DNA from: a virus
Lineage: Duplodnaviria > Caudoviricetes
DNA length: 54,896 bases
Direction: 5' to 3' (one strand)
IMG/VR virus record: IMGVR_UViG_3300002219_000827
Location: 1 to 54,896 of that record
Positions 2,669-40,983 of the stretch are shown piece by piece (within the stretch, counting starts at the first letter, position 1; every line of letters begins with the position of its first letter). A program made the translations under genes and the position numbers. The notes under the pieces were generated by a model. It saw nothing but the letters and a program-made list of their open reading frames with translations. It had not been told where the DNA came from and searched no databases.

Positions 2669-5600
2669 TTACGTCAACTGCTCCTGCTCCCAGGCCATTT
2701 TCCGCTTATTCGGTTTCGCGGAAAGCGCCTGCTTGATGGTTTGCGCCTTGATGATCGGCACCAGGCCCGACGCCTGGGACTCACGCAGATCCTTGTTGAA
2801 CCGCATGATTTTCAACATCACTTCTTTCCGCTCGGCCCCTGGCGCAGCCATTCTCAACTTTGCCAGCAGGTCACTCCGTTCCTCTTTCCAATGTGCCTTC
2901 AAGCCGTATTCAATGTTCATCAGATCACTTCGTTCCGACACCCTTGACGGCTGAAAGCCAAGCGTCCGTTTAATGGCCTCGCCGCCTGTGTACTTCATCG
3001 GCTTGCCATTTTCGTCAAACAAGACCTTCCCGGAGTAGCTGGTTGCACCCTTGGTTGACATCCGGTAGGCCCGCATGGCTCCGGCCAAGACTTCCGGGGA
3101 CAAGTTCTCCATGGTGCGGTAGATATCGCCACGGCTTGCCGCCACCGCCGCACGGCTACCTTTCTGCACCAGGCCTGTCATTACCCCGCCCGCCGCGTCC
3201 GGCAGAGACTCACCGCCGATCAACGGCGATACGATGGGGATCTGCAGGCGAATAGCATTCGATATATTCACTCCGGCCGCACTTGCTGCCCCATGCCAGG
3301 CAAAGCCGTGAATCATCTCACCTAATGATCCATATTCCTTCGCGTGTTTCGACGTCCATTTCCGGAAAGCCAATTTTGGGCTTTCCCCGAAAAACATCTG
3401 ATAAAGTTTATCCAGTTCATCACCGCCAGGCAGGGCCATCGCCCCGCCGATGATCGCGGTAGAAACTGCATAGCGTAGCAGGGCCTTCATGTCTTCCTTC
3501 TCGCCGCTGGTCATCCGGTTGAAAATCCAGTTCCAGGTGTTCCACATAAAGCTCTGCAAGGCATACACGGTTCGCCCCAGCGGCTTCTGGGCAAAACCGG
3601 GAAGGTTCGCCCGGCTCATCTCGAAGTTTACCGCCCGGTTGACTGCCAGGGCTTTCTGCAATGACTCATCACGGGATAGCCCGTCAGCACGGAAGGTGCG
3701 ATAGGCCGCCAGGATCACCGTCTTTCGGTTCAACAACTCAACTTCCTGGAATGGCATAAGGGCCTTGTCGGTCAACGTGTGCATAAAGCTGGAGACTTTA
3801 CCGGTAACCCCTTCCCGTTGACCGCTCATTTCGTGCACCGCGGTCTCCATCTCTTGCAATTTGAAAATCTCCGAAGCGAACAGCCTTTTATCCGATTCAG
3901 AGAGCTTCCCGGAGAGGATATCCTTCTGTGCTTTTCCTATTGCCCATATGGCACTTCGTTTCGTGTGCCGCCCCAGTTCCGCTATACCCAAGGTCCACGG
4001 CTGCGTCGAGTTGATCAACATCGATGATACCTTGAATCCAAGATACGTTAACGTGGCCACGGCCCGCATGTTACCGCTCACCTGGTCGGCAAAACCCATG
4101 TTCCGCAGGTTATCCACGATGTATTTATGTGCCCACTTCTTCACCTCGGGCTTTGCATAACGGAAGTGCTCGAACTGCTCCTGGGCATACCTCGCCTTGG
4201 AGAGCATCCCGGCGGTACCGGTCATGTAATCGTGATAGCCATTAATGGTATTATCCGCGTCATAGCCTTCGATCAGGTACGGAGCCCGGCGGATCCGGTG
4301 AGCTCCGGCGCCGCGAGCCATTAGCACTTCGGCGGTTGACTGCAGGATCTTCTGCCGCAGGGCGGCCGCTTCGTTTTTACTGATTTCACCTGTTTTCGAA
4401 GCCCGGTTGATAGCCTCCAGTTGTGCCTGTTCCATTGCAAAATCGTTTTTCATATCGCCATACATATCTTCCGTGAGCTGGTCGACAAAACGGTGCTCCG
4501 TCTCGTACTGCGCCCAGTCCAGATAGTTATGGGGAATTGCCTTTTTCAGATCCTTTTCAACCTCGGCATGGTGTTGTCCGGCCTTGCTTTCGGTTCGCTG
4601 CAACCGCATATAGACCTTGACCCGAATTCGCCCACTTCCCAGCTTTTGCAATTCATTTTCATGATCCTTGATGGTAGAAGGAGCTTCGCCGTCTTCAATC
4701 GCCTGCTTCAATGCAGCCTTGCGCCGTTCAATCAGCAGTTCGTTCTCCAGTTGCAGTTTTGGAATAATTTCCGAGGCCTTTTCCTGAAAGCGTTTTATCT
4801 GCTCCGAAGGCATAGACTCAGCCATTAATTTCGCATGTTGCAGCTCGTCCAGTTCCGTCCCTAACTTCTTCTTTTCCTCAGTCGTGGCAGTTGCTATTTT
4901 CGCCTGGAGCTTTTCAATCTTTTTCTTAAAGACCGCCGTGGCGTTTTTATAGGTGGTAACCAGTTGTCCACCATTAGGCAGATGCTGATATTTTAATCCC
5001 AGTCTCGCGGTCAGTTTCTTCAACTCGGCAGCGACTTCCGCACTTGGGAAATAAGGCAGCAAGGCCTGCATGGAGTCCTTGTCTCCCCGCACATCCCACT
5101 TGAGGCCGTTGATCACCTGATAGACGTTCACCTGGTAATCACCCTCGCCATGGTTACGCGGCAACCAACCGGGCCGCTCGGCCAGGCGGTTGCGATAGTC
5201 TGACAAATGCTTTTCAATGAGCTCTTTCGGCAATCCGGCATCATACATAAACTGGCGGGACATATCCTCAATAGAATCAGCCACAACGGTATCGATGTGA
5301 GTCCTCACCTTTTGATATACAGCAAATGCCTGATCGGAAACCCCTGCGGCCTTTTTATCCTCCTTGACCATTTCCAGCGTCTTATAAACTTTACCGTGGA
5401 GGTCTCCACGATACAGCAACAGGTCGACACCCTCCCGATCAGCGACCGGCAACTTATTGAAGGCATCGGTAATCCGCCCCCATTCCGTTGTGCGGTCCGA
5501 ATTTTCCCACTGACTGTAGGTTTTCTTCAAGCGCTCCAGGAGTCCCGGAGCTTCCGCCGCGGGTCCGTCAAAGCCAAAGAAGCGCAACAGATACTCCATT

Positions 5601-8600
5601 TTTGTTTCTTCGCGCTTGATACCCGTGTCCACGAACGGCCGCTTGTTCTCATCCGTCGTAGCATCCGGATTTTGCAGGAAATATGCCGCCCCATTGAGGA
5701 TATTCTGAGGAGTAACATCGACAAACCAGCGCTTTGCCCTGGACCAGTCGAGGGGATTCAACATCCGGGCAATCTTCTTCCACGCCTCGCCGCCCTTCAT
5801 CTCCCCGACATACCCGCTAAAGCGATCAGCCAGGGCATAGCGGATACCCGTATCAACCGGCATTTCCTGTACATCCGCCATTAACACGTCTGCAGGAAGC
5901 CCAACAAACAGATCATAGACGAAGCCCGGCGGATTTGTATTCTGAATGAATACCCTGCCAGTTGGCAGTTTATCCACTGGTAGCGCAACAATCTTCACCG
6001 TTCGGCCATCTCGTGCTTTACTCCAGGCAATCTCTTGGGCAGTGGCATAGGAAGTGGTCCACCAAGAACCTTTCAGATCCTCACCGGCAGCGTAGTGCCC
6101 GCGATCCGGATTAAAAGGAACTACACCAGGGCTATGCTGTTGATCAGCTTCGTAAAATGCCCGGAACAGTAACCGGCCCGGCTCGTCGTAATCCCTGACG
6201 GTGGTTTCGATGGCCTCAATTGCCTTCGCCTTATCCGCCTCCAGAACCTCGCGTTCCGTGGTATTGAGGGAAACACCCTTATCAACGATCTGACCCTTCA
6301 CGTCTTCGAGACGGGCAAGAGCGAACTTTGTATCTAGTGGCAGCGTTTTAACAGAAGCTCCCACCCAATTGCGCCGTGCTCTTTCAAAAGCATGAAGCGG
6401 ATTCATCCCTTTGATTGAATCGTCGTACCAGGTTTCTCCATCAAACGAATAGTAGACATCCAGCTCAAACGGGTACTTTGTCTCGCTGTATCCTTTCGAC
6501 TCCTTGCCGAAACCCATCAGGCTGTCAGATACATTCTCATACCCCGTAACGGTGTCTTCATCGAACGCCTGATATTGTTTCGGACTGAAAGCGAATCTCG
6601 CCCCACCCGGTTGCCAATTAGCAAACGTCTCCAACTGATCGTCAGTAACACCCTGCTCCCGGAGACTCCGTAACATGGCACCGTAGTCAATCCCTGATCC
6701 CTTATCCTCATTCCTCGTTCCTTCCTTACCTTCCACAAACCTCCGGGCCTTACCCAGCAACTCCCGGATCTCCGCATCTCCATAGCCTGCATTCCAGCCG
6801 ATACTCCGGAGGAATTCTTTTACCGCGGCTATTACCTTGGAAAGGATAGTCGAGTCCATCCCGGTTCGAGCATCACGGCCCAGCATCTCTTCCGCTGCCT
6901 CAATGCGACCATCCCGGGTTTTCAGGTCCAGGCCATAGCGAGCCGCCAGTTCCTTCCACTCGGCATTGCGCTTATTGGCATACCAGAGCGCCGCTTGGAG
7001 CATGTGCTTTTCATAAGCGTCCTTTGCCATGATTCCACGCAGTCCGTGGTGAACAACGACTTCCTCAAGCAGGACCTGCTTCGCCTCTTCCACCGAGCGG
7101 AAGTTGTCGGCAACGTAAACAACCTCATTCCCCAGGTAAACCGCCTGCAGAAGACGTTGCGGGATACCCCGCTTCGCGGCATCATCCAGAGCCCGCTTCG
7201 GCAATTCCGCCGTCGTCTGGACTACTCGCCAGGGCGGGGAGTTCGGCATGTTCTTGTAAACTGGTTCAAAGGCAGTCTGGATGTCGCCTGCCGGGAGGCC
7301 GAAGGAGGCTTGCCCCGCAGCTACGGCATACCTGGGGTTACCCTCTTGACTCGCCCGAGTCGCAATTCTCGGTGATTCAAAGTCCCTTTCTTCAAAAACC
7401 GGAGAACCATTTTCATCAGCTACTTCCAGGTAAGGCACGTTCTCCGTGCTGGATCCTTTGTCCACGGTAACGAAATACCCGTCACTGGTCCACTGGTGAC
7501 CGGTTACCGGATACGGTTTCCCTTTCACATAGACATCTCCGCCTTCCGGTGCACCATGTCGCAGCCAGGAAGGTGGCGGAATCGGATTGCCTTCCAGGTC
7601 GGACATAAGATCTGCCAGCATTTGTTTCTTTTTTTCCAACTCAGCAGCTCGCGGAAAGGTTTCTTTTGCAGACTGACGAAGTGTTTTGACACTCTCAGTG
7701 AGTGATGTTTCCTGGTCTTTAGCGCTCTCGTTGTGCTTCTTCAGGTTGCGAAGGATAGCCTCCATGCTGGCAACACTCGGTTTCGCTTCGAGAAAGTTTT
7801 CAATATAGTTGCGGTCCTGCTCATCTGCCCAGTTTCGGCTTTTGTATTTCCCTTCCGGCCAGGCATCAGGCATGGTCAGGCTGATTTCATACTTCTCGGA
7901 AAACTGGGACCAGCGCCCGACAATATCGAAACCGTAGATTACCCCGATCTTCTCTTTATCGGAAAAGCGGCCCATCTTTTCCAGACGAGCATCAAGGGCC
8001 TCTTGAGCTTTGGCCCTGTCAGTAAAAGTCTCCTTGCCGATGCTCGCGCTAAAGGTCTCCCTGGCGCCCTCGTACCGCTCTATCATCTTATCAATAATGC
8101 CGCGTCGCCTTTTACTGTCGTCAATCTTCTTTTCACTTTTATTCGCGGCCTCTTCGGCGTCTTCAATACCAAAGGCATGCATCCGCTCCCGGTTCTGCAG
8201 TTTCTCGATATCCTTCTTGTACTTCTCACGGAGCAATATACGCGGATCCCCAGCGGCCTCGGAAAGCGTCTGAGCAAGATCACTCACGTTATCCGATTCA
8301 TCCATATTCACCGCATCGCCATCGATTACACGCACATCGTCTTTCGCCTTCAGGAAGGCCTTGATGAAACGATCCTTGATAACCAGAACCTGCCAGCGCC
8401 GGCCGTCCAGTTTTTCCGTGAGGTAGCGGATTTCCAGCACTGTGTTCCACTTGTTTCCCTGCCGGTGGCCACGACCATTCCGCTGCTCCAGTTCACCCGG
8501 CATCCACGGTGCATCAAGATGGTGGATAGCCCTCAGGTTTTCCTGCATGTTCACGCCGACACCCAGGGTTTTCGTGTTGCCGATCACTACGCGGATATCA

Positions 8601-11600
8601 CTCCGGTTCATGGCGTCGGCGGTCTGCTTCCGTTTTTCTTTGTTCACCTTGCCGTCAATAATGGCAATCTGTTCCCTGGGGATTCCCCCCGCAACCAGCT
8701 TATCAACGATGTCCTTGGACAGATTGAAACGATCCTTGGTCGTTTTTGTCTTGGTGCCGTCCTTATTGGTTTTGGTGGAAGTGGATTTGTCAGAAAATCC
8801 CCGCTCCATGAAAAGAACCTGCGTAGTTTTATCGTGCTCCTTATAGATTTTCAGCAGATTCCTGACGCATCGATTCACCTTGCTTTCCGGATCATCGTAC
8901 GAATCCTTATTGACCAGGCGCACATCCATGCCGGCATTTGCTGCCGCTGTTTCCACCAAAACCGGAGAGGCCGGGTGCCCGGAAAGCATGATCTCCCTGC
9001 GTTCTTTCGGGCTTGCCTGACGGAATACCTTAGCCAGCCGTGCCAATTCCCCTAGAATAACCCGCTGTTGGCTTCCCATGGGGCAGGTTTCCACGATGAT
9101 TTTCTTATACGGCCTGCCAATCGGATCTTCATTCCGGCCATTCACCAGACGATCCCGCTCTTCAGCGGTAAGGGTTGCGTCCTGGAGTGTCTTGCCGTTT
9201 ACTTCTCTCGGCTTGAATTCGGGCATGTCGTCGGCAAAGACGATATCGGTATACTGCCCCATCATTCTTCTCAATTCAGGAACATTCACGAAGGAAGCAA
9301 GCCTGGTGACAGCCTCATAGTCGCCGGCAGCCGTCAGTTCAACATCACTGGACGAATCGGCAAAGGTATTAAACCACGAATCCCAGGCCTTGATACCGCT
9401 ACGCTCCATCTCTCCATCCATCACGTAGCGCATCATGTGATAGATTTCGGTCAGGGTATTGGTAATCGGCGTGCCGGTAAAGATGTGGACACCGCCACCG
9501 GAATTCATTCGCTTCACATAGCCGGTCAACAAGTGCAGGGCAAGGCTCTGGTCAGACGTTGCCGTATTAAGGCCCCGCATGCGCATTTTTGTGGTAATCG
9601 GTGGCTTTTTAAACTCATGGACCTCATCCACCATAACCATGTCCACGCCCAACTGTTCAAAAGATACCGCGTTTTCCCGGGAAGCCCGCATGGCCATCTC
9701 GTCAATCTTCTTGATGATCCGGTTTCGGGCATGGACCAGGTTCTTGGCCGTGACGCTCCGGACCTTCTTCATGGCCTCTTCATCATTCATATCGCTAATG
9801 GATAATTCAACCCCGTCGTCCTGAGCGGCTTCTATTGCTTCCTGCTCCAAAGCCGATATCTCTTCCGCCGCCAATTCATTCAACGTCTCCCTGGTGAGTC
9901 CGAAGCGCGAGATAAGGGAATGAGGCACCACAACAGCATCCCAATCATCATTGGCGATCTGACGCATAGTGACATCGATCTTATCCGGCGTGAGGTTATC
10001 CACGTAGAGCACTTTCGCTGCCGGGTACATCTCCTGAATCTCACGGGAAACGGTAGCACTGTTGGCATTGTGGGCGAAGATCAGCGGCTTTTTGGCTATG
10101 CCATAGCGTCTTGACTCCACGGCTATACCGCCCATGGTGTAGGTTTTGCCTGTCCCTACTTCATGGGCGTACAGGCCACCACGATTGACAAGGCCCCGCC
10201 AGATTGCATCGACCTGATGCTTTCGCAGGCTGAACGGGGAACTACCACGAGTCAGGGCCATGCCCTCGAAGTTGAGGAACGATCCATCATACTTCGTGTC
10301 GGCAATGGCATTCATCACCTCGTTGTATTCTTTTTCCAGGGCAAGCTTGCGAGCGGAATCTTTCCATACCCAGGTTGAAAACTCTTCCCGGATCCGGCCA
10401 GCCTTTTCATTGGCCTCTGCCGTGGCTACGCTATCAACAACTTTGTTGCCGTCCTCGTCCCGGCCCCACACCGTTATCGCCGAATTGTTCATAGCTGCCT
10501 GAACAAGCTTGTTGAACTTATACGAAGGATGTCCCCAGACCGTTGTAGCCTCCGGTTTTCCGTTCAGCCCATCCCTGGTGAATTTCACTTTCCAGGCTCC
10601 CAGCTGAAAAGCTACGTCAATACCGCTTTCACCCTGTTCGCCAAGCATATCGGCGATAAAGCGTTTGTAATGGTCAGGGGAAACCCATGGGGCTCCCAGC
10701 TTTGCCTCAATTTTGTAATACGGCTGATCGGGAGGAACGATCTTTTTCAGTTCCTCAATATTCCGCGACATCTCCATACCATCAGCCTGTGCCGCTTCGG
10801 CCTCACGGAGCTTGCGCCGGACGTTTCCGGATAGATACTGGTCCGACACCTCATAATTACCTGCAGGCGTCAGAAAGATTGAACCACTATTCAGAAGATC
10901 CCGGGTAACATCGTTGAGCGGTCTTCCGGTAAGTTCCGCTACGCGATTCAGATCGATATTCAGATTTTCATTACGGGCGAGAACATAGGCGTCCTGGACG
11001 CTGGGATTGGCAATGGTGCGGGTAGAGCGCACCGTTGATTCAGACAGGATTTTGGCGGGTCGATACACCGTTCCTTTTGAACTGTTTTCAGTAACCTCAA
11101 GGGCCGCCAGAGTTGCATAGAACGGATCACCCGCTTTACGGATGAACGTCAATCCATTTGAATCATTGATCCGCCCATACTTTTTAACGAATGTTTCGTA
11201 CTGGCTGCGAAGATCATTTCGCAAAGCATCGGCAGGTTCCCCAGCTCTCTCGGCATCGATAAGAGCCCCATACGCCTTGCGAATCTTAACCAGAGAGGCA
11301 ATCTGGTTTTCCCTCTCCCGCGTCTCCTTCTCGCTCTTCACCTCGTAGGAAACGAGTTCTTTCAACGGAGCAAGGTATTCTCCCTGCACAACATAGAGTC
11401 CACCGTTGTCGCCAACGGTGACACTCTGCTGCCGGTCTGTCGTATTGTTGGTAATATAGGAAATGATCTTCTTCGTTTCACTCCGTGCGTCATAGATACC
11501 CGCTGGAACCAGCTCCACAATCCGGGCGAGACGTTCGGCGTAGTTTGAAGGCCGGTTGACGGTCATACCACCACGACCACGCGGCCCGCCACTGGCAAAA

Positions 11601-14600
11601 TCAAACGCTCCGAGAACATGATCCGGATGAGATTTCCAGTATTCATTGATCTTGATATCGCCGTTCGGGGTCGTATGGTCAACGACATCCATCCAGCCAC
11701 TGCCGGCCAGATCCGTATTCGACTGCTCGCGCTTCTTCAGGACGATAATATCGGTAACAACATCAGTACCGGCGTACTGCTTGAATGCACCGGACGGTAG
11801 ACGGAAGGCTGCAACAAGATCGCCTTTCTTGGCAAGCTCCATCCTGGTCAATTTGCCGATTTTGTCCATGGTGCCGGAACTGGTAACGCCGATTATCAGG
11901 CCACCGGGCCGCACCTGATCGATAGCTTTAAGAAAGAAGTAGTCATGCAGAGAGGGGCTTATCTGCCGGTAACGACGGTCAGCCGGGCCGTCTTTGGCAA
12001 ACGGCCAGTTACCGATGATAAGATCGTAGAAATTGTCTGAGGTTTTGCTTTCCTGGTAACCCTTGATCTGGATATTTGCCTGCGGGTAAAGAATCTGTGC
12101 CATTCCGCCGGTCAGGGTATCAAGTTCAATACCGGCCAGCTTGCTCCGCTCCATGACGTTACGTGGCATGAGGCCAAAGAAATTGCCTATGCCAATGGAA
12201 GGCTCAAGGATCCGGCCGCCCGCGAAACCAAGCCTTGCGGCAAGCTCCCACATCGCCCCGACAGTGGGAGGATCAGTATAATGGGCATTGATGATAGAGT
12301 TTTGGGCACTCTTCCAGTCTTTTTCGCCAAGGTGTTCCCGTAGCCACTGGGATTCCTTTTCCCATTCCGGTTTGGGTCTTGGATGATCCCAGCTGCCCTG
12401 GAACAATTCTTGTCCGAATGAGCCCCAGCCGGTATAGGCCGCCATATAATCAAGTTCTTCAGGGGTAGGTGTTCTGCCTTCGGAAGTGATCGACTGCAAC
12501 GCCTCGATAGCCGCCCTGTTCTTCGCAAAACGGACCTTCGGCGTGCCACCGACAAGTTTTTCGGGGTCGCTAATGTGGTAATTTGATCGAGCTAGGTTTG
12601 GTTCGTCTCCCAAGGAAAGTGAGGCTCGGGCTCCATCTCCTCGTCGTTCTCCGCTTCCTCCATTTCCATCATCAGCCAATCCTGTTCGGCTTGTTCCCGT
12701 GCGTCCGTCGCGCACATTCCCGCCTTCAGGTTTTTCGCTATCGCTTCGTCGCACTTCGCGTCGAGGACGTGAGCCAGTTCCTTCGCTGTCCCCATCGCTG
12801 TCAGACGCTGCCACATCTGCGGCCGGTACAGTTCCCAAAACTTCAGCATCCGCTCCTGCACCTGTCCGCCCTTGCCCAGTGTCAGCTCTTCCAGCCTGGC
12901 CGATTCCTTCCGCACCCATTCCGCGAACGTCGGATCTTTCCGCAACGGAACCACTCTCGGATCGTTCATTTTCCACACCTCCATCCACAGACGAATTAAA
13001 CTCGTCCTCATTAAAGAGTTTATCAGACTCCTGACTATCCTGCAACCCGGTTTTTTCTTCGATTTTTGCCTTCTCACCAGATTCAATCTGAGCTTCCGTA
13101 TCCATCCCGGCATTATCAAAACCGGGATAGTTCCGCACTGCCAGATAGAAGGCTTTCAGGAAAGGACTGATTGCTTCTCCAAGATCTGTAACCATTCGCT
13201 TCGAATACTCCGTAAACGAACGGGCTCCCGCCTCGATATGGTACCCGGCAAGGTCTATCCCAGCTTGGATCATCTCCGGATCAAGCCCGGCATTCAGCTG
13301 AGAAAGTTTCTTGCGCAGGATCTCCCGGGCACGGTCGGCCTTGTCCTTGGTAAAGACAGCATTCTTGTCACCATAGGACCCTTCGGAGTTTTGAGTTTTT
13401 GGTTTTGAGTTTTGAGTTGAATCCTCCAGCTCCTTTTCAGTTTCAGCTACTGGACCTTTCTCTTTCTCGACATCTATCCGCTGTTCACTGTCAACTGTCC
13501 CCTGCCTTTCCCCTACTTCCGCTTTTTCCTTCGCTTCTCCCTGTTGTTTATCAAGGTCCGCTCCTTTCCCCTTCAGCGCAGCAGTAACCGGATGATCAAC
13601 CTTTGTGCTCGGCAGTGCCGCTATCTCTTCAGGTGACAGATCCTCGAGCTCTTTTCCTCCGCTTTCCACCTGGGCCTGGACTTTCCATTTATCAATCCAG
13701 CCTTCCTTGATCCTCTTACCCAGCCAGGCAGGCCCCAGCGTCTTCTTACCGGCGTACTCTTCCGCAATCAGATCAGCAATCTTACCGGCTATCGCTTCGT
13801 CTGCTCCCCCAGCCTTCAGCTTTGCAACGATCTTTCCCCAATCCTTCAACCAGGGGAATAACTCTTCCTTATTGCTCCGGCCGTTGTCCATCGACCCGCG
13901 TTCCCAATAGGAGGCCCTTTCACGAGCCGACTGGAGAAGACCACGATCCGCGTCCGTAACGCTGCCAAGCATGTCTGCATCAGGAGTGTTTGACGGTGCT
14001 TCCGGAGCACGCCAGCCATTTTTGAGCCGGTCCATAACTTCATCAGGCGTCACCATCTCGGTTACACCGGTCTCGGGATTGACCAGGGAAACATTGGCAT
14101 ACTTCGGCCCTGTCTCACCCTGGTTTACAATTGGCACTTCTGCTCGCCGCTTAAATGAATCCAGTATCCGCTGCGCATAGGTATTCGGATGCTCACGGAC
14201 CTGTCGCATCAAATGAGTTTTCCCGGCCTTAATTTCTCCCTCGGCCCAATCACGGGCTTCATCAAGTACCAGTTCGTCCGTGGTGGTCCCTTGAATAGGC
14301 GGCACTGAAGCGGTCACGGGAGCAGCCTCGATGTCCCCGATCCCCGGAATAGCGTTAGCCGTGGCCGCTTCAGCCGCCCGGCTCAATGGACCTTTCGGCG
14401 CTTCCGGCAAAACCGGTTGCTCCTGAGCCTCCAGATCCACTACCGGATGAGGAGGTTCACCGGCAGTAAACGAATCAGCCTCGATAGAGGCAGGTTCAAG
14501 GTTCGAGGTTTGCGGTTCGAGGTTTTCATCTTTAGCCGGTACCTGTTTTTTCCCGCTTCCACTAATGACGCCTGTACCACCGCCCATAGCCAGTCCTGCC

Positions 14601-15436
14601 ATCAGGCCTGAGGCAGCAGCTTCAGCCACACCTTCATGCCATGGTCTACCCAGCGAGATATTCTGTGCGGCCTGTTCTTGTGCTGACTGAGGAAGTTCTT
14701 CAAAGGCTCCTTCAGAAATTGCGCCTTTCACGATACGTAGCAGAATATTTTGTTTCTCACCCTGGGCGGTCCCACCGGCCAATAACGTATCGATATCCGC
14801 AATTCCAAGGCGCTGTGCCAGTTTTCCACCCAAAAGGCCAAACAATCCCGTTAATGCACCACTGCCGGCAGATACTGCCGATTGCTTCAGGGAAAGATCA
14901 CCGTGTTCGGTTGCCTGCCTCGTTTGCTCTGCCGTAGCCCCAGCGCTTATCACCCCTTCCCCCAAAGCACCCGCAACAACAGGTGCTAATTTGGGAAGAA
15001 CTTTCATGGCCTGCCTTGCGACTCCAGCTCCTCCCAACATAGAGGGGATAGACTCAATTATTGAATGAGCGACGGTCGACGGGTTTTTAACGTGTTCCAC
15101 TATTGTCGGAATAAAACCTTCAGCCTCTTCAACGGCTTTATTGGCCTCTTGTTGTTCCGGAGAATACAGATCGTCAAGAATTATTTTTGCCTCTTTTGGC
15201 CGGTATCCTACTTTTTCCGCGAGTCGGCCTGCCTCTCCACCCGTGGCAATATCAGCAATACCAACTACCGCTTCAGGAAGACCTATTGCCCCCTTCAGTG
15301 CAGATATTGCAGGATCAGCTACATACCTGCGTAACGCTCCAGATTGCTTTACAGGTTCAGGCTGTGTCATTCTGTCCAGCTGCCCCTGGTAATCTTCAAG
15401 CTCCATCTGCGCCAAAAGGTTGTCGTAGATATTCAT
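2669..15436 (-). CDS. Giant (4255 aa) DarB-like polyvalent ejection protein: N6-adenine MTase + SF2/SNF2 helicase + metallopeptidase-like + PLxRFG-like domains
   Basis: ILEPSIGIGNFF and IGNWPF (MTase); HEVGTGKT, DEVH, TGTP, QRNGRGHRQGN (helicase); LLEEVVVHHGLR; WLPRNHGEGDY; last gene of the virion module. Confidence 0.85.
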   Translation of the reverse strand: MNIYDNLLAQMELEDYQGQLDRMTQPEPVKQSGALRRYVADPAISALKGAIGLPEAVVGIADIATGGEAGRLAEKVGYRPKEAKIILDDLYSPEQQEANKAVEEAEGFIPTIVEHVKNPSTVAHSIIESIPSMLGGAGVARQAMKVLPKLAPVVAGALGEGVISAGATAEQTRQATEHGDLSLKQSAVSAGSGALTGLFGLLGGKLAQRLGIADIDTLLAGGTAQGEKQNILLRIVKGAISEGAFEELPQSAQEQAAQNISLGRPWHEGVAEAAASGLMAGLAMGGGTGVISGSGKKQVPAKDENLEPQTSNLEPASIEADSFTAGEPPHPVVDLEAQEQPVLPEAPKGPLSRAAEAATANAIPGIGDIEAAPVTASVPPIQGTTTDELVLDEARDWAEGEIKAGKTHLMRQVREHPNTYAQRILDSFKRRAEVPIVNQGETGPKYANVSLVNPETGVTEMVTPDEVMDRLKNGWRAPEAPSNTPDADMLGSVTDADRGLLQSARERASYWERGSMDNGRSNKEELFPWLKDWGKIVAKLKAGGADEAIAGKIADLIAEEYAGKKTLGPAWLGKRIKEGWIDKWKVQAQVESGGKELEDLSPEEIAALPSTKVDHPVTAALKGKGADLDKQQGEAKEKAEVGERQGTVDSEQRIDVEKEKGPVAETEKELEDSTQNSKPKTQNSEGSYGDKNAVFTKDKADRAREILRKKLSQLNAGLDPEMIQAGIDLAGYHIEAGARSFTEYSKRMVTDLGEAISPFLKAFYLAVRNYPGFDNAGMDTEAQIESGEKAKIEEKTGLQDSQESDKLFNEDEFNSSVDGGVENERSESGSVAERSDVRGMGAEGIGQAGRADTGQGRTGAGADAEVLGTVPAADVAASDSDGDSEGTGSRPRREVRRSDSEKPEGGNVRDGRTGTSRTGLADDGNGGSGERRGDGARASLSLGDEPNLARSNYHISDPEKLVGGTPKVRFAKNRAAIEALQSITSEGRTPTPEELDYMAAYTGWGSFGQELFQGSWDHPRPKPEWEKESQWLREHLGEKDWKSAQNSIINAHYTDPPTVGAMWELAARLGFAGGRILEPSIGIGNFFGLMPRNVMERSKLAGIELDTLTGGMAQILYPQANIQIKGYQESKTSDNFYDLIIGNWPFAKDGPADRRYRQISPSLHDYFFLKAIDQVRPGGLIIGVTSSGTMDKIGKLTRMELAKKGDLVAAFRLPSGAFKQYAGTDVVTDIIVLKKREQSNTDLAGSGWMDVVDHTTPNGDIKINEYWKSHPDHVLGAFDFASGGPRGRGGMTVNRPSNYAERLARIVELVPAGIYDARSETKKIISYITNNTTDRQQSVTVGDNGGLYVVQGEYLAPLKELVSYEVKSEKETRERENQIASLVKIRKAYGALIDAERAGEPADALRNDLRSQYETFVKKYGRINDSNGLTFIRKAGDPFYATLAALEVTENSSKGTVYRPAKILSESTVRSTRTIANPSVQDAYVLARNENLNIDLNRVAELTGRPLNDVTRDLLNSGSIFLTPAGNYEVSDQYLSGNVRRKLREAEAAQADGMEMSRNIEELKKIVPPDQPYYKIEAKLGAPWVSPDHYKRFIADMLGEQGESGIDVAFQLGAWKVKFTRDGLNGKPEATTVWGHPSYKFNKLVQAAMNNSAITVWGRDEDGNKVVDSVATAEANEKAGRIREEFSTWVWKDSARKLALEKEYNEVMNAIADTKYDGSFLNFEGMALTRGSSPFSLRKHQVDAIWRGLVNRGGLYAHEVGTGKTYTMGGIAVESRRYGIAKKPLIFAHNANSATVSREIQEMYPAAKVLYVDNLTPDKIDVTMRQIANDDWDAVVVPHSLISRFGLTRETLNELAAEEISALEQEAIEAAQDDGVELSISDMNDEEAMKKVRSVTAKNLVHARNRIIKKIDEMAMRASRENAVSFEQLGVDMVMVDEVHEFKKPPITTKMRMRGLNTATSDQSLALHLLTGYVKRMNSGGGVHIFTGTPITNTLTEIYHMMRYVMDGEMERSGIKAWDSWFNTFADSSSDVELTAAGDYEAVTRLASFVNVPELRRMMGQYTDIVFADDMPEFKPREVNGKTLQDATLTAEERDRLVNGRNEDPIGRPYKKIIVETCPMGSQQRVILGELARLAKVFRQASPKERREIMLSGHPASPVLVETAAANAGMDVRLVNKDSYDDPESKVNRCVRNLLKIYKEHDKTTQVLFMERGFSDKSTSTKTNKDGTKTKTTKDRFNLSKDIVDKLVAGGIPREQIAIIDGKVNKEKRKQTADAMNRSDIRVVIGNTKTLGVGVNMQENLRAIHHLDAPWMPGELEQRNGRGHRQGNKWNTVLEIRYLTEKLDGRRWQVLVIKDRFIKAFLKAKDDVRVIDGDAVNMDESDNVSDLAQTLSEAAGDPRILLREKYKKDIEKLQNRERMHAFGIEDAEEAANKSEKKIDDSKRRRGIIDKMIERYEGARETFSASIGKETFTDRAKAQEALDARLEKMGRFSDKEKIGVIYGFDIVGRWSQFSEKYEISLTMPDAWPEGKYKSRNWADEQDRNYIENFLEAKPSVASMEAILRNLKKHNESAKDQETSLTESVKTLRQSAKETFPRAAELEKKKQMLADLMSDLEGNPIPPPSWLRHGAPEGGDVYVKGKPYPVTGHQWTSDGYFVTVDKGSSTENVPYLEVADENGSPVFEERDFESPRIATRASQEGNPRYAVAAGQASFGLPAGDIQTAFEPVYKNMPNSPPWRVVQTTAELPKRALDDAAKRGIPQRLLQAVYLGNEVVYVADNFRSVEEAKQVLLEEVVVHHGLRGIMAKDAYEKHMLQAALWYANKRNAEWKELAARYGLDLKTRDGRIEAAEEMLGRDARTGMDSTILSKVIAAVKEFLRSIGWNAGYGDAEIRELLGKARRFVEGKEGTRNEDKGSGIDYGAMLRSLREQGVTDDQLETFANWQPGGARFAFSPKQYQAFDEDTVTGYENVSDSLMGFGKESKGYSETKYPFELDVYYSFDGETWYDDSIKGMNPLHAFERARRNWVGASVKTLPLDTKFALARLEDVKGQIVDKGVSLNTTEREVLEADKAKAIEAIETTVRDYDEPGRLLFRAFYEADQQHSPGVVPFNPDRGHYAAGEDLKGSWWTTSYATAQEIAWSKARDGRTVKIVALPVDKLPTGRVFIQNTNPPGFVYDLFVGLPADVLMADVQEMPVDTGIRYALADRFSGYVGEMKGGEAWKKIARMLNPLDWSRAKRWFVDVTPQNILNGAAYFLQNPDATTDENKRPFVDTGIKREETKMEYLLRFFGFDGPAAEAPGLLERLKKTYSQWENSDRTTEWGRITDAFNKLPVADREGVDLLLYRGDLHGKVYKTLEMVKEDKKAAGVSDQAFAVYQKVRTHIDTVVADSIEDMSRQFMYDAGLPKELIEKHLSDYRNRLAERPGWLPRNHGEGDYQVNVYQVINGLKWDVRGDKDSMQALLPYFPSAEVAAELKKLTARLGLKYQHLPNGGQLVTTYKNATAVFKKKIEKLQAKIATATTEEKKKLGTELDELQHAKLMAESMPSEQIKRFQEKASEIIPKLQLENELLIERRKAALKQAIEDGEAPSTIKDHENELQKLGSGRIRVKVYMRLQRTESKAGQHHAEVEKDLKKAIPHNYLDWAQYETEHRFVDQLTEDMYGDMKNDFAMEQAQLEAINRASKTGEISKNEAAALRQKILQSTAEVLMARGAGAHRIRRAPYLIEGYDADNTINGYHDYMTGTAGMLSKARYAQEQFEHFRYAKPEVKKWAHKYIVDNLRNMGFADQVSGNMRAVATLTYLGFKVSSMLINSTQPWTLGIAELGRHTKRSAIWAIGKAQKDILSGKLSESDKRLFASEIFKLQEMETAVHEMSGQREGVTGKVSSFMHTLTDKALMPFQEVELLNRKTVILAAYRTFRADGLSRDESLQKALAVNRAVNFEMSRANLPGFAQKPLGRTVYALQSFMWNTWNWIFNRMTSGEKEDMKALLRYAVSTAIIGGAMALPGGDELDKLYQMFFGESPKLAFRKWTSKHAKEYGSLGEMIHGFAWHGAASAAGVNISNAIRLQIPIVSPLIGGESLPDAAGGVMTGLVQKGSRAAVAASRGDIYRTMENLSPEVLAGAMRAYRMSTKGATSYSGKVLFDENGKPMKYTGGEAIKRTLGFQPSRVSERSDLMNIEYGLKAHWKEERSDLLAKLRMAAPGAERKEVMLKIMRFNKDLRESQASGLVPIIKAQTIKQALSAKPNKRKMAWEQEQLT
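12592..12969 (-). CDS. Nested alternative-frame gene (125 aa, MNDPRVVPLRK...) inside the giant ORF
   Basis: GGAGGT RBS 7 nt upstream of the ATG, internal promoter and globular helical composition, while the main frame is low-complexity here. Confidence 0.65.
   Translation of the reverse strand: MNDPRVVPLRKDPTFAEWVRKESARLEELTLGKGGQVQERMLKFWELYRPQMWQRLTAMGTAKELAHVLDAKCDEAIAKNLKAGMCATDAREQAEQDWLMMEMEEAENDEEMEPEPHFPWETNQT
13017..13045 (-). promoter_or_regulatory. Internal sigma70-like promoter for the nested gene
   Basis: TTGCAG-N17-TAAACT about 50 nt upstream of the ATG at 12969. Confidence 0.5.
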
Positions 15437-26416: not shown

Positions 26417-27094
26417 CTACCTCAAGTGTCCGTCGTAAGAATCATACGGCAGATTCATTTCGTCAAAGACCTCATTTATCGCGGAAGATTTCGTGCCGAA
26501 TTCCTGTTCGAACAAGGCGAGATGCACATTGGCCCGGTTCTTGTCGAACAGCTCTGAATTCGTATTATTATAGACCTTGTGCTTCATCCAGAGAACCAGG
26601 GAGCGATGATAGCTGACTGGTATCTCCGGAACGTCTGCAGCCTTGGCCATGGGGTTCAGAGGTAATCTCGCAACCGTCAAGATCAAGGTGTCTGTCGCTG
26701 TCGGAATTTTGTCCAGCCTGATTTTCCGGGATTCCATGCCGGTTACTATCGCCTCGGCGATTCCGGTCCTGGTTTCCCATCCCGGACGCCTCTCGTCCAA
26801 CTCCCAGTAGACAAACTTACCCAGCGGCTTCGTGCGGCTCGCCAGTTTTATTCTGCGAATGGAAATGATCCTCGGGTCATAGGCATAGACAGCGGTACCG
26901 ACAGCTACCGCAATACGACACAGTTCCACGATATCAGAGTCAACAAGTAGTTTCGCCCGCCTGCACGCTTCCTCTTCCGCCTCATTGGCATAGAGTAGCG
27001 ACTGCCATGGCTCGATACGGGATGCTCCTTGACCTACGCCGACTTCATCATCGATTTCCTTCCGCATCAGCTGATCGATTTCGCCAAAGTTCAT
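26417..27094 (-). CDS. Head-tail adaptor (tail tubular protein A-like)
   Basis: YANEAEEEACRRA and PEIPVSYHRSLVLW motifs; position in module. Confidence 0.65.
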   Translation of the reverse strand: MNFGEIDQLMRKEIDDEVGVGQGASRIEPWQSLLYANEAEEEACRRAKLLVDSDIVELCRIAVAVGTAVYAYDPRIISIRRIKLASRTKPLGKFVYWELDERRPGWETRTGIAEAIVTGMESRKIRLDKIPTATDTLILTVARLPLNPMAKAADVPEIPVSYHRSLVLWMKHKVYNNTNSELFDKNRANVHLALFEQEFGTKSSAINEVFDEMNLPYDSYDGHLR

Positions 27095-28656
27095 CTTTTC
27101 CTCCAGTTACGATAGACCTTCATCACCGCCTCGCCGACATCGTAGGGAGAAATATTCACGGCACACCTGGCCGCTCCGGTCGCTTCATCGGTTTGACAAA
27201 ATTCGGGACCATAATGCAGCTGGTGGCAAGGGTGACAATCGCAGTCTCCTGGCGTAAAGGACTGGACATTGACCCAGTGTTTCGACAAGTTGTTTGCCGA
27301 AGAGTGCGACAGGAACAAAATCTTGTGCGGAGACTTGTCCATTCCCACCGCATTCAGCACCCCGGTTTCCGGACCGATAACCAGATCCACGGCACGGGCC
27401 AGTGCCAACGTGTCACGAATAGACATCTTTCCCGACAGGAGATGCACACGAGGCTCTTCTTCCCAGCCCTGTTCCAGCAAGCGGCAGGCATCATCACCCA
27501 CCAGATATATTTGGGCTTCCGGTATCTCCACCAGGATCCGCGCAATCACCGCATCCTGGTGAGGGTAGAATTTATGAATACTGGACCCGGCCAGCGCCCA
27601 GAGAATAGTAAAGGTAGGTTCGTTGTCAGCTGCTTGCATTTTGATAAGTCCGCGGGCGTTCGATGTCTCATCAACAGTGGGATAGAACAGCTGACACGGC
27701 CTGAACGGCACTCCGGCCAACTCTGCCGTCCACTCGTGATAGTTCGTGTTCATGCGCTTCTTGCGAACATCATGTGGCCAGGAGTGATTCGTTCTCCCGG
27801 GGAGCGCCAGCAGGTTTCCTTCAATCGATTCCGAGAGGTTGATAAATCGATCGAACCGTCTCGCCTGTACTCGCCAGAATGCCGACAATTCATTATTCGG
27901 TATTTGGTCCTGATCCAGCAAAAACCACTCGTCCACGTCCGGATCGTGCCGGATAACATCCATCCCCTTCGGCGTCGTCATCACCGTTACGTGGTAGTCC
28001 AGATCTTTCAGTCGCGGGAAAACAATTGCCGCCTGGAGCATATCGCCGAAGCCGCCGAAGCGGCAAACGCAGGCGGTCTTGCGCTCAGGTCTAACAGACT
28101 GGATTATTTTGGGCCGGTTTACAGGCGGTTTCTGACAATCCCAGGCAACCTTCTGTAATACCACGAATATGCTGTATTCATCTGTTCGTGAACGTTCTTC
28201 AAATTCAACCAATGTCCAAAAGTAGGGGACTTTATCGAATAACCCTTCAATCTCTTCCGGATAGATATCATGCTTATGGTCAGGATTCGCCCCTGGCTCC
28301 CCGCACTTCGGATAGAGATTCGCCGAGGGGACATACAAGATCAAGTAGCCCCCCGGCCTAATTACCCGTCCCCACTCGGACAAGGCAGCCTCCATATCCT
28401 CCATGTGTTCCAGTACGTGGCTGGAGAACACAAAATCCATGGCTTCATCGGCAAACATCGACAGATCATCCGCCTGCCCTACAATGTCGGCGGCACCTTT
28501 ACCAAAGTGGTGTCCGTTGTCGATACCGATGAAATGAGGAAATGCCTTTTCCATCCCGCAACCAATCTCAAGGCCCCGGCCCCGAGTGTAACGGGGAAGC
28601 AGGTACTTGATCTTGCGAGACTCGAATCCGCGTGAAGTTTCAGGGGTCCAGGTCAT
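27091..28656 (-). CDS. SAM-dependent methyltransferase fused to GT9 (heptosyltransferase-like) glycosyltransferase
   Basis: GLEIGCG, DFVFSSHVLEH, RPGGYL (MTase); RFGGFGDML, DLVIGPETGVLNA, CDCHPCH (GT9). Confidence 0.8.
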   Translation of the reverse strand: MTWTPETSRGFESRKIKYLLPRYTRGRGLEIGCGMEKAFPHFIGIDNGHHFGKGAADIVGQADDLSMFADEAMDFVFSSHVLEHMEDMEAALSEWGRVIRPGGYLILYVPSANLYPKCGEPGANPDHKHDIYPEEIEGLFDKVPYFWTLVEFEERSRTDEYSIFVVLQKVAWDCQKPPVNRPKIIQSVRPERKTACVCRFGGFGDMLQAAIVFPRLKDLDYHVTVMTTPKGMDVIRHDPDVDEWFLLDQDQIPNNELSAFWRVQARRFDRFINLSESIEGNLLALPGRTNHSWPHDVRKKRMNTNYHEWTAELAGVPFRPCQLFYPTVDETSNARGLIKMQAADNEPTFTILWALAGSSIHKFYPHQDAVIARILVEIPEAQIYLVGDDACRLLEQGWEEEPRVHLLSGKMSIRDTLALARAVDLVIGPETGVLNAVGMDKSPHKILFLSHSSANNLSKHWVNVQSFTPGDCDCHPCHQLHYGPEFCQTDEATGAARCAVNISPYDVGEAVMKVYRNWRKR

Positions 28657-38331: not shown

Positions 38332-39157
38332 CAGCTCCACCTCCCGCGAAATCCCTGCACGCCTGCTTGTTTGCCGCTCTCGTAGCCTCTGCCAGCGAAC
38401 CTGCCGCCACACCCTCCGGGCTTGCCCTGGTACCGACGCCAGATCCCAGGTTACGGAACCAGCGCAACACCAGCAGCCACGGATCCGTGCCAATCGTTTC
38501 CCGGCGGTATTTTGCGACCAGCTCCTCTGTCTCCAGGCCAATGTCGACATCAGGGAAGTTTTTCTGCAACCAGTCCCGCTGTTCCTCCACGCATTTCCGG
38601 AGAGACCTCTCCGACAGGGTTACGCCAGCCTGCCCGCCAGCCTTGGGTGTCAGATCCGGCCCTGTCACTCCTGACTGACTCTGTTCCCTAGCAGGCTTTC
38701 CTTTCCCTTCCTTTTCCCTTCCCTTCCCTTCCCTTCCTGTCATCCCTACTGTGTCTCTATCTTTTCCCTGTTGTGTCCCCGGTGTGTCCCCGCTTGGCCC
38801 CGGTTCTATCTTGCCGGGATAACTGGGTAATTTAGCGGGTTCCGTTCCTTCCTTGCCGGTGATCCTTTGATGTGTCGTAAATGTCGGGATAAATCCATAT
38901 TTTTTGCCATCAACCACAAAAGGGATAATAATCTCTGCCTCCGTGAGGATATTCAAGGTTGCTTCCATATCGAATTTCAGGAAGGGTAGAATATGAAGAT
39001 TCAATATTCTCGGCCGCCATTCAAAAACACCCTGCTTGTCGCAATTGCCCCACAGCCCAGCGAACACCAGCATCACATATTTACCGGGATTATCAGCTTC
39101 CAAATCCTGCAGGTCTTCATCAATAAAAAATTCCGGCTTTATTGTGCGGATGCGCAT
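38324..39157 (-). CDS. Phage replication initiator (replisome organiser-like)
   Basis: RIRTIKPEFF, LWGNCDKQG, FTTHQR, GREGKGRE linker. Confidence 0.7.
   Translation of the reverse strand: MRIRTIKPEFFIDEDLQDLEADNPGKYVMLVFAGLWGNCDKQGVFEWRPRILNLHILPFLKFDMEATLNILTEAEIIIPFVVDGKKYGFIPTFTTHQRITGKEGTEPAKLPSYPGKIEPGPSGDTPGTQQGKDRDTVGMTGREGKGREKEGKGKPAREQSQSGVTGPDLTPKAGGQAGVTLSERSLRKCVEEQRDWLQKNFPDVDIGLETEELVAKYRRETIGTDPWLLVLRWFRNLGSGVGTRASPEGVAAGSLAEATRAANKQACRDFAGGGADG
38698..38792. repeat. CCCTT tandem repeats and TGTGTCCCCG direct repeats; candidate origin within the initiator gene
   Basis: Direct repeats inside the initiator gene, as in lambdoid origins. Confidence 0.35.
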
Positions 39158-40983
39158 AGCTGCCCCTTGGTACCATGAACTTGCCCTACCCCTCGATAAT
39201 TCGCCCGCACCAGCGCCTCGGCAAAAGCAGGAGGAACGGAATTGCCGCAGCGCTTGACCTGCTCTGTCGCCGTGATTTTCTTCCCGTTCGACGTCCGATC
39301 GATAATATAGTCAGACGGAAATCCTTGAGCATTGAACAACTCACGCGGAGCCAGCATCCTCATACCAATATCGGCAATCTGATATTCCTCGCCCTTCACG
39401 GTTACCAGACCGAAGCGATCCTTTGTGGTCACCGTCGCTAAAGGCCCTCTTATGTCTGGAGGCACATCAACACCGTAATACTTGATCAGAAACGCCCGAA
39501 CTTCCCCCAGGTGAAAGCCGCCAGCCGTCACCGTCGGCGCAGGATCAGTAACCGCCTGTCCGTGCCGACAAGTACCACGAAGTTTTATCAGGTGAGAGGT
39601 AACGAGGGAGTCTTTTATTTTTGAGGTAGATGTGAGTAAAGGAGAGTCTGCCGGTGCAGAATGAGATGTGCCAAAATTGCGGACCAGGTTGGCCGCTATG
39701 ATCCCGGTTTTTCCACCGCCATCGGCCATGACGGTTGGAGCCGGAGCGTCAACGGCCTGCCCGACGCTTTCCCCGAAATGCCGCACGAGACTTGCCGCAA
39801 CCAGGGAATGATGGTCGATGCTGGTAACGGTACCCAGCGGATCCACCGCACTAGAACCGACAACGCCGGTATAATGTTTTGCCAGGAACGCGGAAACCAC
39901 GGCATGCCGGGCCTCAGCCGTTACCGTTGTCAACGGAGCGTCTCCCGGCCACACGGAAGAGTCACCCGCCCCTCGATGATCTATCCCCACAATCTGAGGA
40001 GCGACCACGGCAAACCTGTTTTCCGTCGTCTGCGTTCGCAGTGGCTCAGTGATCTTCTGCCCACGGAAACCACCGCCTTTTTTCTCTCCGTAATATGAAA
40101 CGATGAACGGCTCCGGACTCTCCACCACATAGCGCATCACACCGCGGGCAATCCTCCTGAGAGTTGCATCCACCAGGGGACGCCGCACATTCAGAACCTT
40201 CCCTTCCTCTTTTGACAAGAAAATTGAGGGACACGGCCTACTCCACTCAATACACTCGGCAGCGGACCGCCATGGCTTGAGCTTCCCGGACTTCACCGCC
40301 GCGCTCTTCGGATCCCCGTGAGTAGGCTCCGGCCAAACAATCAACTCTCCGTCACAGCGAGCCACCAAGAAGAAACGCTTCCGCGATGTCGGAGCGCCAT
40401 AATCGCAAGCCCGCATCTCCCGGTATTCGACCTCGTAGCCATGCTTTCGGATTGCCTTCACAAAAGCCTGGAAGGTTTTGCCCCTCCGCTTCGGGCACGG
40501 ATAATGTTCACCATCGCCATTTTTAACCAGCGGACCCCAGGTAACAAACTCCTCGACGTTCTCCAACATAATAATCCGTGGGCGCTTCTTACCGATCCAC
40601 TTCAGAACAACCCAGGCCAAGCCCCTGATTGTCTTCTGAACCGGTTTCTTACCCTTGGCCTTCGAGAAGTGCTTACAGTCCGGAGAAAACCACGCCAGAC
40701 CCACGGGTCGGCCGCCGGTAACCTCCACCGGATCGACATCCCACACCGACTCACACAGATGCCGGGTAAGCGGATGATTAACCAGGTGCATATCAACCGC
40801 CCCCGGGTCATGATTTATTGCAATATCAACCGGACGGCCCAGTCCCGCCTCAATGCCCATCGAGGCACCACCGCCGCCGGCGAAATTATCCACCACCATT
40901 TCCTCAAAATTAAAACCGAATTGAGCCGGGATACGGAAACGGCCGTTCTTCTCCGCCAGAATCCCCTTGCGACCTGAAGCCAT
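39139..40983 (-). CDS. C5-cytosine DNA methyltransferase (orphan)
   Basis: FAGGGG, SPDCKHFS, ENV, RKRFF, GNSV motifs. Confidence 0.9.
   Translation of the reverse strand: MASGRKGILAEKNGRFRIPAQFGFNFEEMVVDNFAGGGGASMGIEAGLGRPVDIAINHDPGAVDMHLVNHPLTRHLCESVWDVDPVEVTGGRPVGLAWFSPDCKHFSKAKGKKPVQKTIRGLAWVVLKWIGKKRPRIIMLENVEEFVTWGPLVKNGDGEHYPCPKRRGKTFQAFVKAIRKHGYEVEYREMRACDYGAPTSRKRFFLVARCDGELIVWPEPTHGDPKSAAVKSGKLKPWRSAAECIEWSRPCPSIFLSKEEGKVLNVRRPLVDATLRRIARGVMRYVVESPEPFIVSYYGEKKGGGFRGQKITEPLRTQTTENRFAVVAPQIVGIDHRGAGDSSVWPGDAPLTTVTAEARHAVVSAFLAKHYTGVVGSSAVDPLGTVTSIDHHSLVAASLVRHFGESVGQAVDAPAPTVMADGGGKTGIIAANLVRNFGTSHSAPADSPLLTSTSKIKDSLVTSHLIKLRGTCRHGQAVTDPAPTVTAGGFHLGEVRAFLIKYYGVDVPPDIRGPLATVTTKDRFGLVTVKGEEYQIADIGMRMLAPRELFNAQGFPSDYIIDRTSNGKKITATEQVKRCGNSVPPAFAEALVRANYRGVGQVHGTKGQLCASAQ

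Follow-up and report, generated by a model that had tools for sequence, protein, structure and literature searches.

Can an open reading frame (ORF) that lies entirely inside a giant phage gene be a gene in its own right, and if it is, what would its product have to do with the enzyme in whose coding sequence it is embedded? This question is raised by a stretch of 54,896 nucleotides from a virus of the Caudoviricetes (IMG/VR record IMGVR_UViG_3300002219_000827, positions 1 to 54,896, analysed at its full length and hereafter called the window), a provirus record with an estimated completeness of 86%, whose minus-strand genes include those for terminase, portal and a head-closure protein. A 125-codon ORF lies there within the gene for a DarB-like polyvalent virion protein, and the original prediction, made from the letters of the sequence, had taken it for a nested gene on the same strand with its own ribosome-binding site. 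The family of the small protein and the selection on its frame bear this out and, judged from sequence, the nested ORF is a real, conserved protein gene. We give a probability of roughly 0.8 to the reading in which it is a same-strand embedded gene that is started internally, is linked to the enzyme module encoded just downstream, and probably encodes an accessory subunit of the LPD36-methylase part of the giant protein. The features with which the argument begins are the following.

2669..15436, minus strand: giant ORF, 4255 amino acids, gene for the DarB-like polyvalent virion protein, at the end of the phage structural module
12592..12969, minus strand: nested gene in the +1 frame of the giant ORF, encoding a 125-amino-acid protein with a five-helix domain and an acidic tail (isoelectric point 4.71)
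12977..12982, minus strand: Shine-Dalgarno (SD) sequence GGAGGT, 7 nt before the ATG at 12969

The nested frame, its family and its start

The nested ORF runs from the ATG at 12969 to a TAG stop at 12594..12592 and is contained wholly within the giant ORF. A word-indexed search returned four homologues of 46-62% identity, and the alignment of the small proteins shows protein-like conservation, with invariant W, P, G and acidic columns. When a profile of 11 members was run against 1.84 billion representatives, 279 cluster representatives were matched at E<=1e-3 and 161 at E<=1e-10, and the best 150 of the 279 matches were all 61-275 amino acids long. DNA of the loci was gathered from three sources, namely collections of viruses, genomes and metagenomes searched with small-protein patterns, a remote branch of the nested family, and the giant-frame domain upstream of the overlap, the last of which is independent of the small ORF. 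The 73 loci with a family match gave 62 distinct small-protein sequences, some of them less than 40% identical, and 58 of these 62 are +1 relative to a frame that stays open for at least 800 codons; the same +1 relation was found in every related locus having a long ORF. The family (A3) is homologous to a second small-protein family (A7; hhalign probability 96.5%, E 8e-10), and the two A7 members with readable DNA have the same nested +1 position before LPD36. Among 401 bacterial genomes of one phylum, two were matched by the A3 profile and one by the A7 profile. Searches with single sequences badly under-report the family, because tblastn with the window small protein gave no match in 50,697 phage records or in plasmids, and P0156 likewise gave none in plasmids, while the A3 profile scores the copy in Pseudomonas phage vB_PaeM_USP_25 (USP_25) at an E value of 8e-40.

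How ribosomes would reach the small frame is indicated by its start. In each locus the ATG nearest to the start of the domain was taken without viewing the sequence upstream, and a 4-nt SD-like core was sought at positions -17 to -4. Of the 37 loci, 27 had such a core, whereas the background, made up of the other +1-frame ATGs of the same, purine-rich giant ORFs, had it at 472 of 2878 (0.164; binomial p 3.9e-14). At the level of sequence the nested ORF appears to have its own translation start, and we infer that it is translated in vivo. The original prediction had also given the gene its own promoter, and this part did not hold, although the hexamers themselves are present:

13017..13045, minus strand: promoter-like hexamers TTGCAG-N17-TAAACT, at chance level

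By our own count they match 7 of the 12 consensus positions, and the coding strand of the giant ORF (12,768 nt) has 155 sites that are equal or better, or one per 82 nt. A promoter scan of 11500..14500 did not list the hexamers and found one site, versus 1.2 expected, and the two closest relatives do not conserve them, carrying CTGAAG and TAGACA. An own promoter was rejected for this chance-level frequency, the outcome of the scan and the lack of conservation. The ORF, its frame and its ribosome-binding site exceed chance, whereas the promoter hexamers do not, and internal initiation on the mRNA of the giant gene itself would be the simplest reading.

Another way into the nested frame would be programmed ribosomal frameshifting from the giant frame, by which a shorter N-terminal product ending in the small domain would be made and no free small protein. 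Four proteins of one lineage (P0278-P0281, 323-412 amino acids), known from the proteins alone, a scan of viral DNA having yielded only distant relatives, have exactly this architecture of helical domain, nested domain and stop: their C-terminal part is the nested domain, in frame and preceded by two copies of the helical domain, whose likeness was judged by eye. The nested frame of the window, moreover, stays open for 62 codons upstream of the ATG. However, a nested-frame stop stands one codon before the ATG in L005, L008, L028 and L037 and five to six codons before it in L012, L027, L030, L040 and L042, so that in these nine loci there is almost no room for a shift site. The retention of an SD-like ATG in 27 of 37 loci, compared with 16% in the background, also argues against frameshifting, and no conserved slippery site was noticed, though no dedicated search was made. 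For these reasons, frameshifting is quite unlikely. It was also seen that three of P0278-P0281 start with a second, A7/TnpV-like domain followed by an acidic tail of its own.

Selection on the two frames

Amino-acid constraint over the overlap sits in the small frame, because changes in the small frame are disfavoured and changes in the giant frame are not. Counts in the style of OLGenie were made on nine disjoint pairs out of 15 pairs with more than 72% nucleotide identity; no locus was reused, two pairs of 100% identity were excluded, sites were treated simply, and the nine pairs were pooled. With N for nonsynonymous and S for synonymous, and with the small frame written before the giant frame, the per-site rates were dNN 0.127, dNS 0.108, dSN 0.298 and dSS 0.446, the last from just 12 sites. 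The ratio dNN/dSN, which measures the small frame, was 0.43, with dNN the lower rate in 9 of 9 pairs, whereas dNN/dNS, which measures the giant frame over the overlap, was 1.18, with dNN lower in only 3 of 9 pairs. The comparison of nonsynonymous and synonymous rates in both frames, which had been proposed together with the original prediction, hence gave purifying selection in the small frame and none in the giant frame. In all 21 pairs of seven loci, the identity of the nested frame was higher than that of the giant frame (means 0.39 vs 0.26). The differences per site at nested codon positions 1, 2 and 3 were 0.504, 0.399 and 0.532, so the most conserved was position 2, which is the wobble position of the giant frame.

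What the giant frame encodes here, and directly upstream, is as follows.

12590..12970, minus strand: low-complexity spacer, giant residues 823-949, which spans the nested gene; its residues are unconstrained and it is free of stops
13001..13264, minus strand: conserved helical domain of the giant frame (AGIDLAGYH...NYPGFDNAGMD), directly upstream of the overlap; the P0278 domain search recovers 39 giant-ORF loci

In the spacer, G, R, D, E, S, T, A and P account for 83% of the residues, as opposed to 55% in the whole giant protein, and hydrophobic residues for 11% as opposed to 29%. The nested stop is located 9 nt before 'NYHI' (giant residue 952), the start of the LPD36-methylase region. Its placement over a G/R/D/E-rich linker, with the stop just before the methyltransferase domain, had been described correctly in the first place.

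A drifting spacer would also be expected if the giant ORF did not encode one protein and the small gene were flanked by a separate upstream gene and one for a methylase-helicase, with the open giant frame across it being incidental. In addition to the ratio of 1.18, locus L016 fits such an arrangement: its methylase frame does not open until about 100 nt before the small gene, and its N-terminal part is a separate ORF of 747 codons, followed by one of 166 codons that looks ferritin-like by eye (2222-2722 and 2715-3278). Nevertheless, even in L016 the methylase frame overlaps the entire small gene. (After 'LIGGARW' this methylase frame comes to a stop, which gives the contig the look of a chimeric or interrupted one.) The giant frame was observed to be open in 39 of 39 loci, whereas resampling of the synonymous codons of the nested frame, with the codon usage of each giant ORF itself, left it open in 2.33 of 39 on average, with a median chance of 0.026 per locus; for the window, the chance of staying open was 0.0003 and 0.0000 in two resamplings. 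This test left out seven duplicate or near-identical loci and the four exceptional loci L014, L020, L016 and L023. Furthermore, T at the third position of nested codons was below the level of the giant ORF itself in 37 of 39 loci. It is avoided there because T followed by codons beginning with A or G would make TAA, TAG or TGA, and such avoidance is a mark of selection that keeps the other frame free of stops. With 58 of 62 copies also spanned by frames of 800 codons or longer, separate genes are a very unlikely explanation. The host frame is maintained open across the overlap while its residues drift freely.

It is scarcely credible that the nested ORF is open by mere chance, in sequence rich in G+C and poor in stops, or that an RNA or DNA element is what is conserved: the overlap does have a higher G+C content (0.590 vs 0.531 in the rest of the giant ORF), and alternative frames of G/R/D/E-rich coding sequence can stay open by chance, but the protein-like conservation with its invariant columns, the conserved second codon position, the dNN/dSN ratio, the 279 cluster representatives and a confidently predicted fold (described below) all speak against it, and the remaining alternative frame is closed, with 2-123 codons in the 20 loci obtained first. 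On the opposite strand, frames of 111-178 codons are open across the overlap (12583-12999, 12699-13034 and 12872-13408, all on the plus strand); such a stop-poor composition is what one would expect where both sense frames stay open.

Two classes of overlapping genes in phages offer themselves for comparison. In the embedded spanin genes of lambda and many other phages, Rz1 lies in the +1 frame wholly within Rz. The gene described here resembles Rz1 in that a small gene with its own start is contained in the +1 frame of a larger gene on the same strand, and the Rz1 product works with the product of its host gene. As in Rz1-like embedded genes, we found nesting in another frame, purifying selection and an open host frame. 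The sequence and function are unrelated, however, Rz1 being an outer-membrane lipoprotein; the host gene here has about 4000 codons, just an unconstrained spacer of which is overlapped, and the small frame carries essentially all of the amino-acid constraint. The overprinted genes of phiX174 (E in D, B in A) are similar in that two proteins are read from one DNA stretch in different frames, one product being disordered or of low complexity. They differ in that the phage record here, of about 55 kb, shows no evident need for a compact genome, and in that structure and conservation belong to the small embedded frame, the large gene contributing just spacer. The embedded Rz/Rz1 class has been described (PMC9144972), and in the accessible text of that paper the word 'embedded' is used for Rz/Rz1 alone.

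Linkage to the LPD36-methylase-helicase module

The module that follows the nested gene is encoded by two regions of the giant ORF.

10937..12583, minus strand: LPD36 (with GWGS) and N6-adenine methylase region, from alignment A8; its 3' limit corresponds to residue 1500, where A8 ends
8456..10231, minus strand: SNF2-type helicase region, giant residues 1736-2327, with Pfam ResIII, SNF2-rel_dom and Helicase_C

The helical domain LPD36 begins at residue 952 ('NYHI'), N-terminal to the methylase, and 'YTGWGSFGQ' comes after this NYHI; the methylase motifs are EPSIGIGNF at residue 1078 and IIGNWPF at residue 1140. The giant protein thus has a GxG[GAS] motif N-terminal to the methylase, motifs of a gamma-class N6-adenine methylase and a C-terminal SNF2 helicase. 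LPD36 was recognised by eye and with alignment A8, not by a curated model, and the definition of its motif was taken from the part of PMC5512222 that was accessible. Among Pfam models, the giant protein matched Helicase_C (2.2e-11), SNF2-rel_dom (5.7e-5; 22.8 bits, below its cut-off of 24.9) and ResIII (0.0035), and no methylase model at E<=0.1. By tblastn, phage proteins with the annotation 'DarB-like antirestriction' share 27-50% identity with the LPD36-methylase region. A module of SWI2/SNF2 helicase, adenine methylase and LPD36 in polyvalent proteins, with P1 DarB as its archetype, is presented in the accessible part of Iyer et al. (2017, PMC5512222). The host gene shares with the P1 DarB module the LPD36 GxG[GAS] motif, the methylase motifs, the helicase and the late-gene context. 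The same portion of PMC5512222 does not contain the words 'overlapping', 'TnpV' or 'frameshift', nor does it describe a small gene before LPD36.

It was found that the small gene follows this module. The sample consisted of the 39 loci recovered via the giant-frame helical domain upstream of the overlap, irrespective of the small ORF, and the LPD36-methylase was detected with a hidden Markov model (HMM) of A8. Of the 20 giant ORFs with LPD36-methylase, 15 had a family match, in each case in the +1 frame, whereas the 19 lacking it had none (Fisher p 7.7e-7). This linkage makes the small gene part of an LPD36-methylase-helicase cassette. In the 20 ORFs that bear the module, each the longest of its locus, the methylase alignment starts at profile column 14 or earlier in 15 and at columns 7-32 in the other five. 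The five without a family match (L066, L070, L088, L089 and L091) have an open +1 segment of 104-201 codons, whose end lies 34-52 nt beyond the expected beginning of the methylase alignment, and four of them form a family, A9, that is weakly like A7 (hhalign probability 45%, E 2.2e-4). Two of the 39 ORFs have a methylase without about its first 137 columns, and their +1 segments are just 22 and 37 codons long; the remaining 17 have neither methylase nor family match.

The arrangement is also found in cultured phages, of which 8 of 91 matching GenBank records were checked. None of the eight annotates a nested gene, and six list only the giant coding sequence (CDS) over the site. A profile-matching +1 ORF before LPD36 is nevertheless carried by five of the eight phages: USP_25, whose A3 match was given above, Klebsiella phage LASTA (A7 profile, E 1.5e-11), PEp14 (E 2.5e-12), Pseudomonas phage Itty13 (E 1e-12) and VvAW1 (E 8e-9). 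In Bcep22 (L094, 1190-1510) and Ralstonia phage NK-7 (L096, 1226-1546), +1 ORFs of 107 amino acids before LPD36 had no profile match; the two share 40% identity (E 2e-19). In the Itty13 record (L100, NC_070969.1 3893-8464), the DarB-like methylase match lies on the strand opposite to both annotated CDSs, and the giant gene of this phage may be mis-annotated.

Elsewhere in the window, the provirus encodes a second, ordinary DNA methyltransferase (39139-40983, minus strand; phrog_116, E 1.4e-97), and another minus-strand ORF at 27091-28656 has a weak methyltransferase match among the PHROGs (1.8e-6).

The small protein and the meaning of the overlap

The structure predicted for the small protein by AlphaFold2 from 102 sequences has a predicted local distance difference test score (pLDDT) of 85 and a predicted template modelling score of 0.74. 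It consists of five helices (residues 13-29, 36-48, 50-59, 62-82 and 87-98), followed by the acidic C-terminal tail, which is of low confidence. The small protein had no match in Pfam, PHROGs or NCBIfam, and searches of the PDB by sequence gave nothing with A2 and just two SOX-17 chains with A3 (E 0.12-0.17). With a first model (pLDDT 71), Foldseek found nothing at E<=0.001 in the PDB and BFVD, and with the better model the best PDB match was 2apl at an E value of 1.0. The best Z in VIA-align was 4.8 and later 6.5, for 2apl_A (root-mean-square deviation 2.8, 61 residues aligned), both values being under the meaningful level for helical bundles. In the ESM Atlas, the best clusters had no name (0.89-0.85), and one cluster with 11% TnpV members (0.82) is a lead only.

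A loose resemblance to TnpV (PF14198) had been noticed by eye at the outset, and it was recovered below threshold in divergent relatives and not in the window protein itself. TnpV is transposon-encoded with no assigned function, and is likewise a small helical protein, of about 110 amino acids, on mobile elements. It is the recurrent best Pfam match of divergent nested ORFs, over profile positions of about 20-83, with scores of 14-21 bits (E values of 0.001 for P0156, 4.3e-4 for PEp14, 0.003 for LASTA, 0.0039 for L078, 0.0043 for L070, 0.013 for L088, 0.015 for Itty13 and 0.045 for Bcep22), and 3 of 44 A7 members matched in this way. The window protein gave no match at E<=0.1, the HMM gave none in six frames of the window at E<=10, and none of the 102 A3 members matched. 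All scores fell under the curated cut-off of 27 bits, and membership in TnpV was therefore rejected, while the likeness is a fair lead to what may be a remote relationship.

The original prediction had further proposed that the small protein is a partner of the methyltransferase-helicase, a proposal in part upheld by co-occurrence, the four in-frame fusions and a weak score in complex modelling. For the small protein together with giant residues 945-1500, which contain the methylase part, the score was 0.50 (runs of 0.59, 0.25 and 0.50), compared with 0.00 for the best of three controls, and this lends the proposal weak support; the runs agreed in at least 95% of contacts and the pLDDT of the partner was at least 70. 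The mark set for this score was reached by 58 of 80 solved complexes and by 2 of 110 mismatched pairs, and among the passing scores those of 0.60 or less came from 7 of the 80 complexes and from both mismatches; own alignments were used here, so these counts hold roughly. The small protein might bind the LPD36-methylase part as an accessory subunit that helps in assembly or packaging or has a regulatory function, and we would give this specific role somewhat less than an even chance. Otherwise, it could be an inhibitor that quiets the enzyme in the producing cell, an independent acidic anti-restriction protein, or something else.

Several observations weigh against the reading of an internally started, module-linked gene for such a subunit. 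The nearest ATG has no SD-like core in 10 of 37 loci, and no internal promoter is supported. The in-frame forms P0278-P0281 imply that a fusion product is viable, which keeps the frameshift route alive. Four of the 62 distinct copies lie outside a long ORF: L014 (1441-1812) has an intact small gene, with an open frame of 123 codons, on a short contig with neither giant ORF nor methylase, and may be a remnant or a free-standing copy; L020 is a short contig with frameshifts; in L016 the small copy occupies an ORF of 187 codons; and in L023/L051 a distant copy is found in an ORF of 298 codons (312 by another count) that carries the truncated start of a methylase. Phage D6, whose record lists darB and three neighbouring genes, has a P1-type darB that starts about 44 codons before LPD36, and this gene contains no +1 ORF of at least 50 codons. 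The P1-type module differs from the window in this respect, and since D6 does without the nested ORF, the chemistry of the module does not need the small protein; in the strict sense, the claim that the partner is inseparable from the methyltransferase-helicase fails. In addition, no match in fold or family suggests a function, and the binding is a weak proposal drawn from a low model score and from association.

Taken with these points, the embedded, internally started gene linked to the module still accounts best for the data. Translation of the small +1 frame would begin at its SD-ATG within the DarB-like gene, the late mRNA of that gene being the simplest template, and would yield a product of about 110-125 amino acids with a five-helix domain and an acidic tail. 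Across the small gene the giant frame would encode just a disordered, G/R/D/E-rich spacer before the LPD36-methylase-SNF2 module, whose residues could drift provided that stop codons were excluded. The small gene would move with the module among phage polyvalent proteins, and its product would most likely act as an accessory subunit, an assembly factor or regulator, on the LPD36-methylase part. The overlap would secure their co-inheritance and perhaps couple their expression.

The embedded arrangement itself is known. In the literature on DarB-like genes, overprinting and TnpV (titles and abstracts in the case of TnpV, and with subscription journals thinly covered), no description of the nested gene was found. 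What appears to be new here is a small gene nested before LPD36 in DarB-like genes, which is not annotated in its cultured carriers. It provides an unusually clean case of dual coding, in which one frame has all of the amino-acid constraint and the other is just kept open, across 62 distinct copies, and it should be useful to the theory of overprinting and to gene-calling programs, in which nesting of this kind is forbidden.

The giant DarB-like proteins serve in counter-defence as enzymes that are injected or carried in the virion, and a conserved, unannotated protein inside their genes is a candidate for a role in their assembly, in their restraint in the producing cell, or in their activation. 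According to the accessible text of the paper on phage JC1 (PMC9144972), a DarB-like protein is found in the virions of Bcep22-like phages, and the DarB-like gene takes up 22.1% of the JC1 genome. Because the gene occurs in cultured Pseudomonas, Klebsiella, Erwinia and Vibrio phages, such a role can be tested directly. More tentatively, an unrecognised small subunit or regulator may be built into most DarB-like modules of phages, and the small gene may be an older, structured gene that was 'swallowed' by the giant gene, whose frame, -1 with respect to the small gene, crosses it as throw-away spacer. If this were true, it may be how upstream modules became joined to the methylase, and the overlap would both record how polyvalent proteins grow, by fusing over a gene that stood in between, and serve to keep the partner locked to its enzyme.

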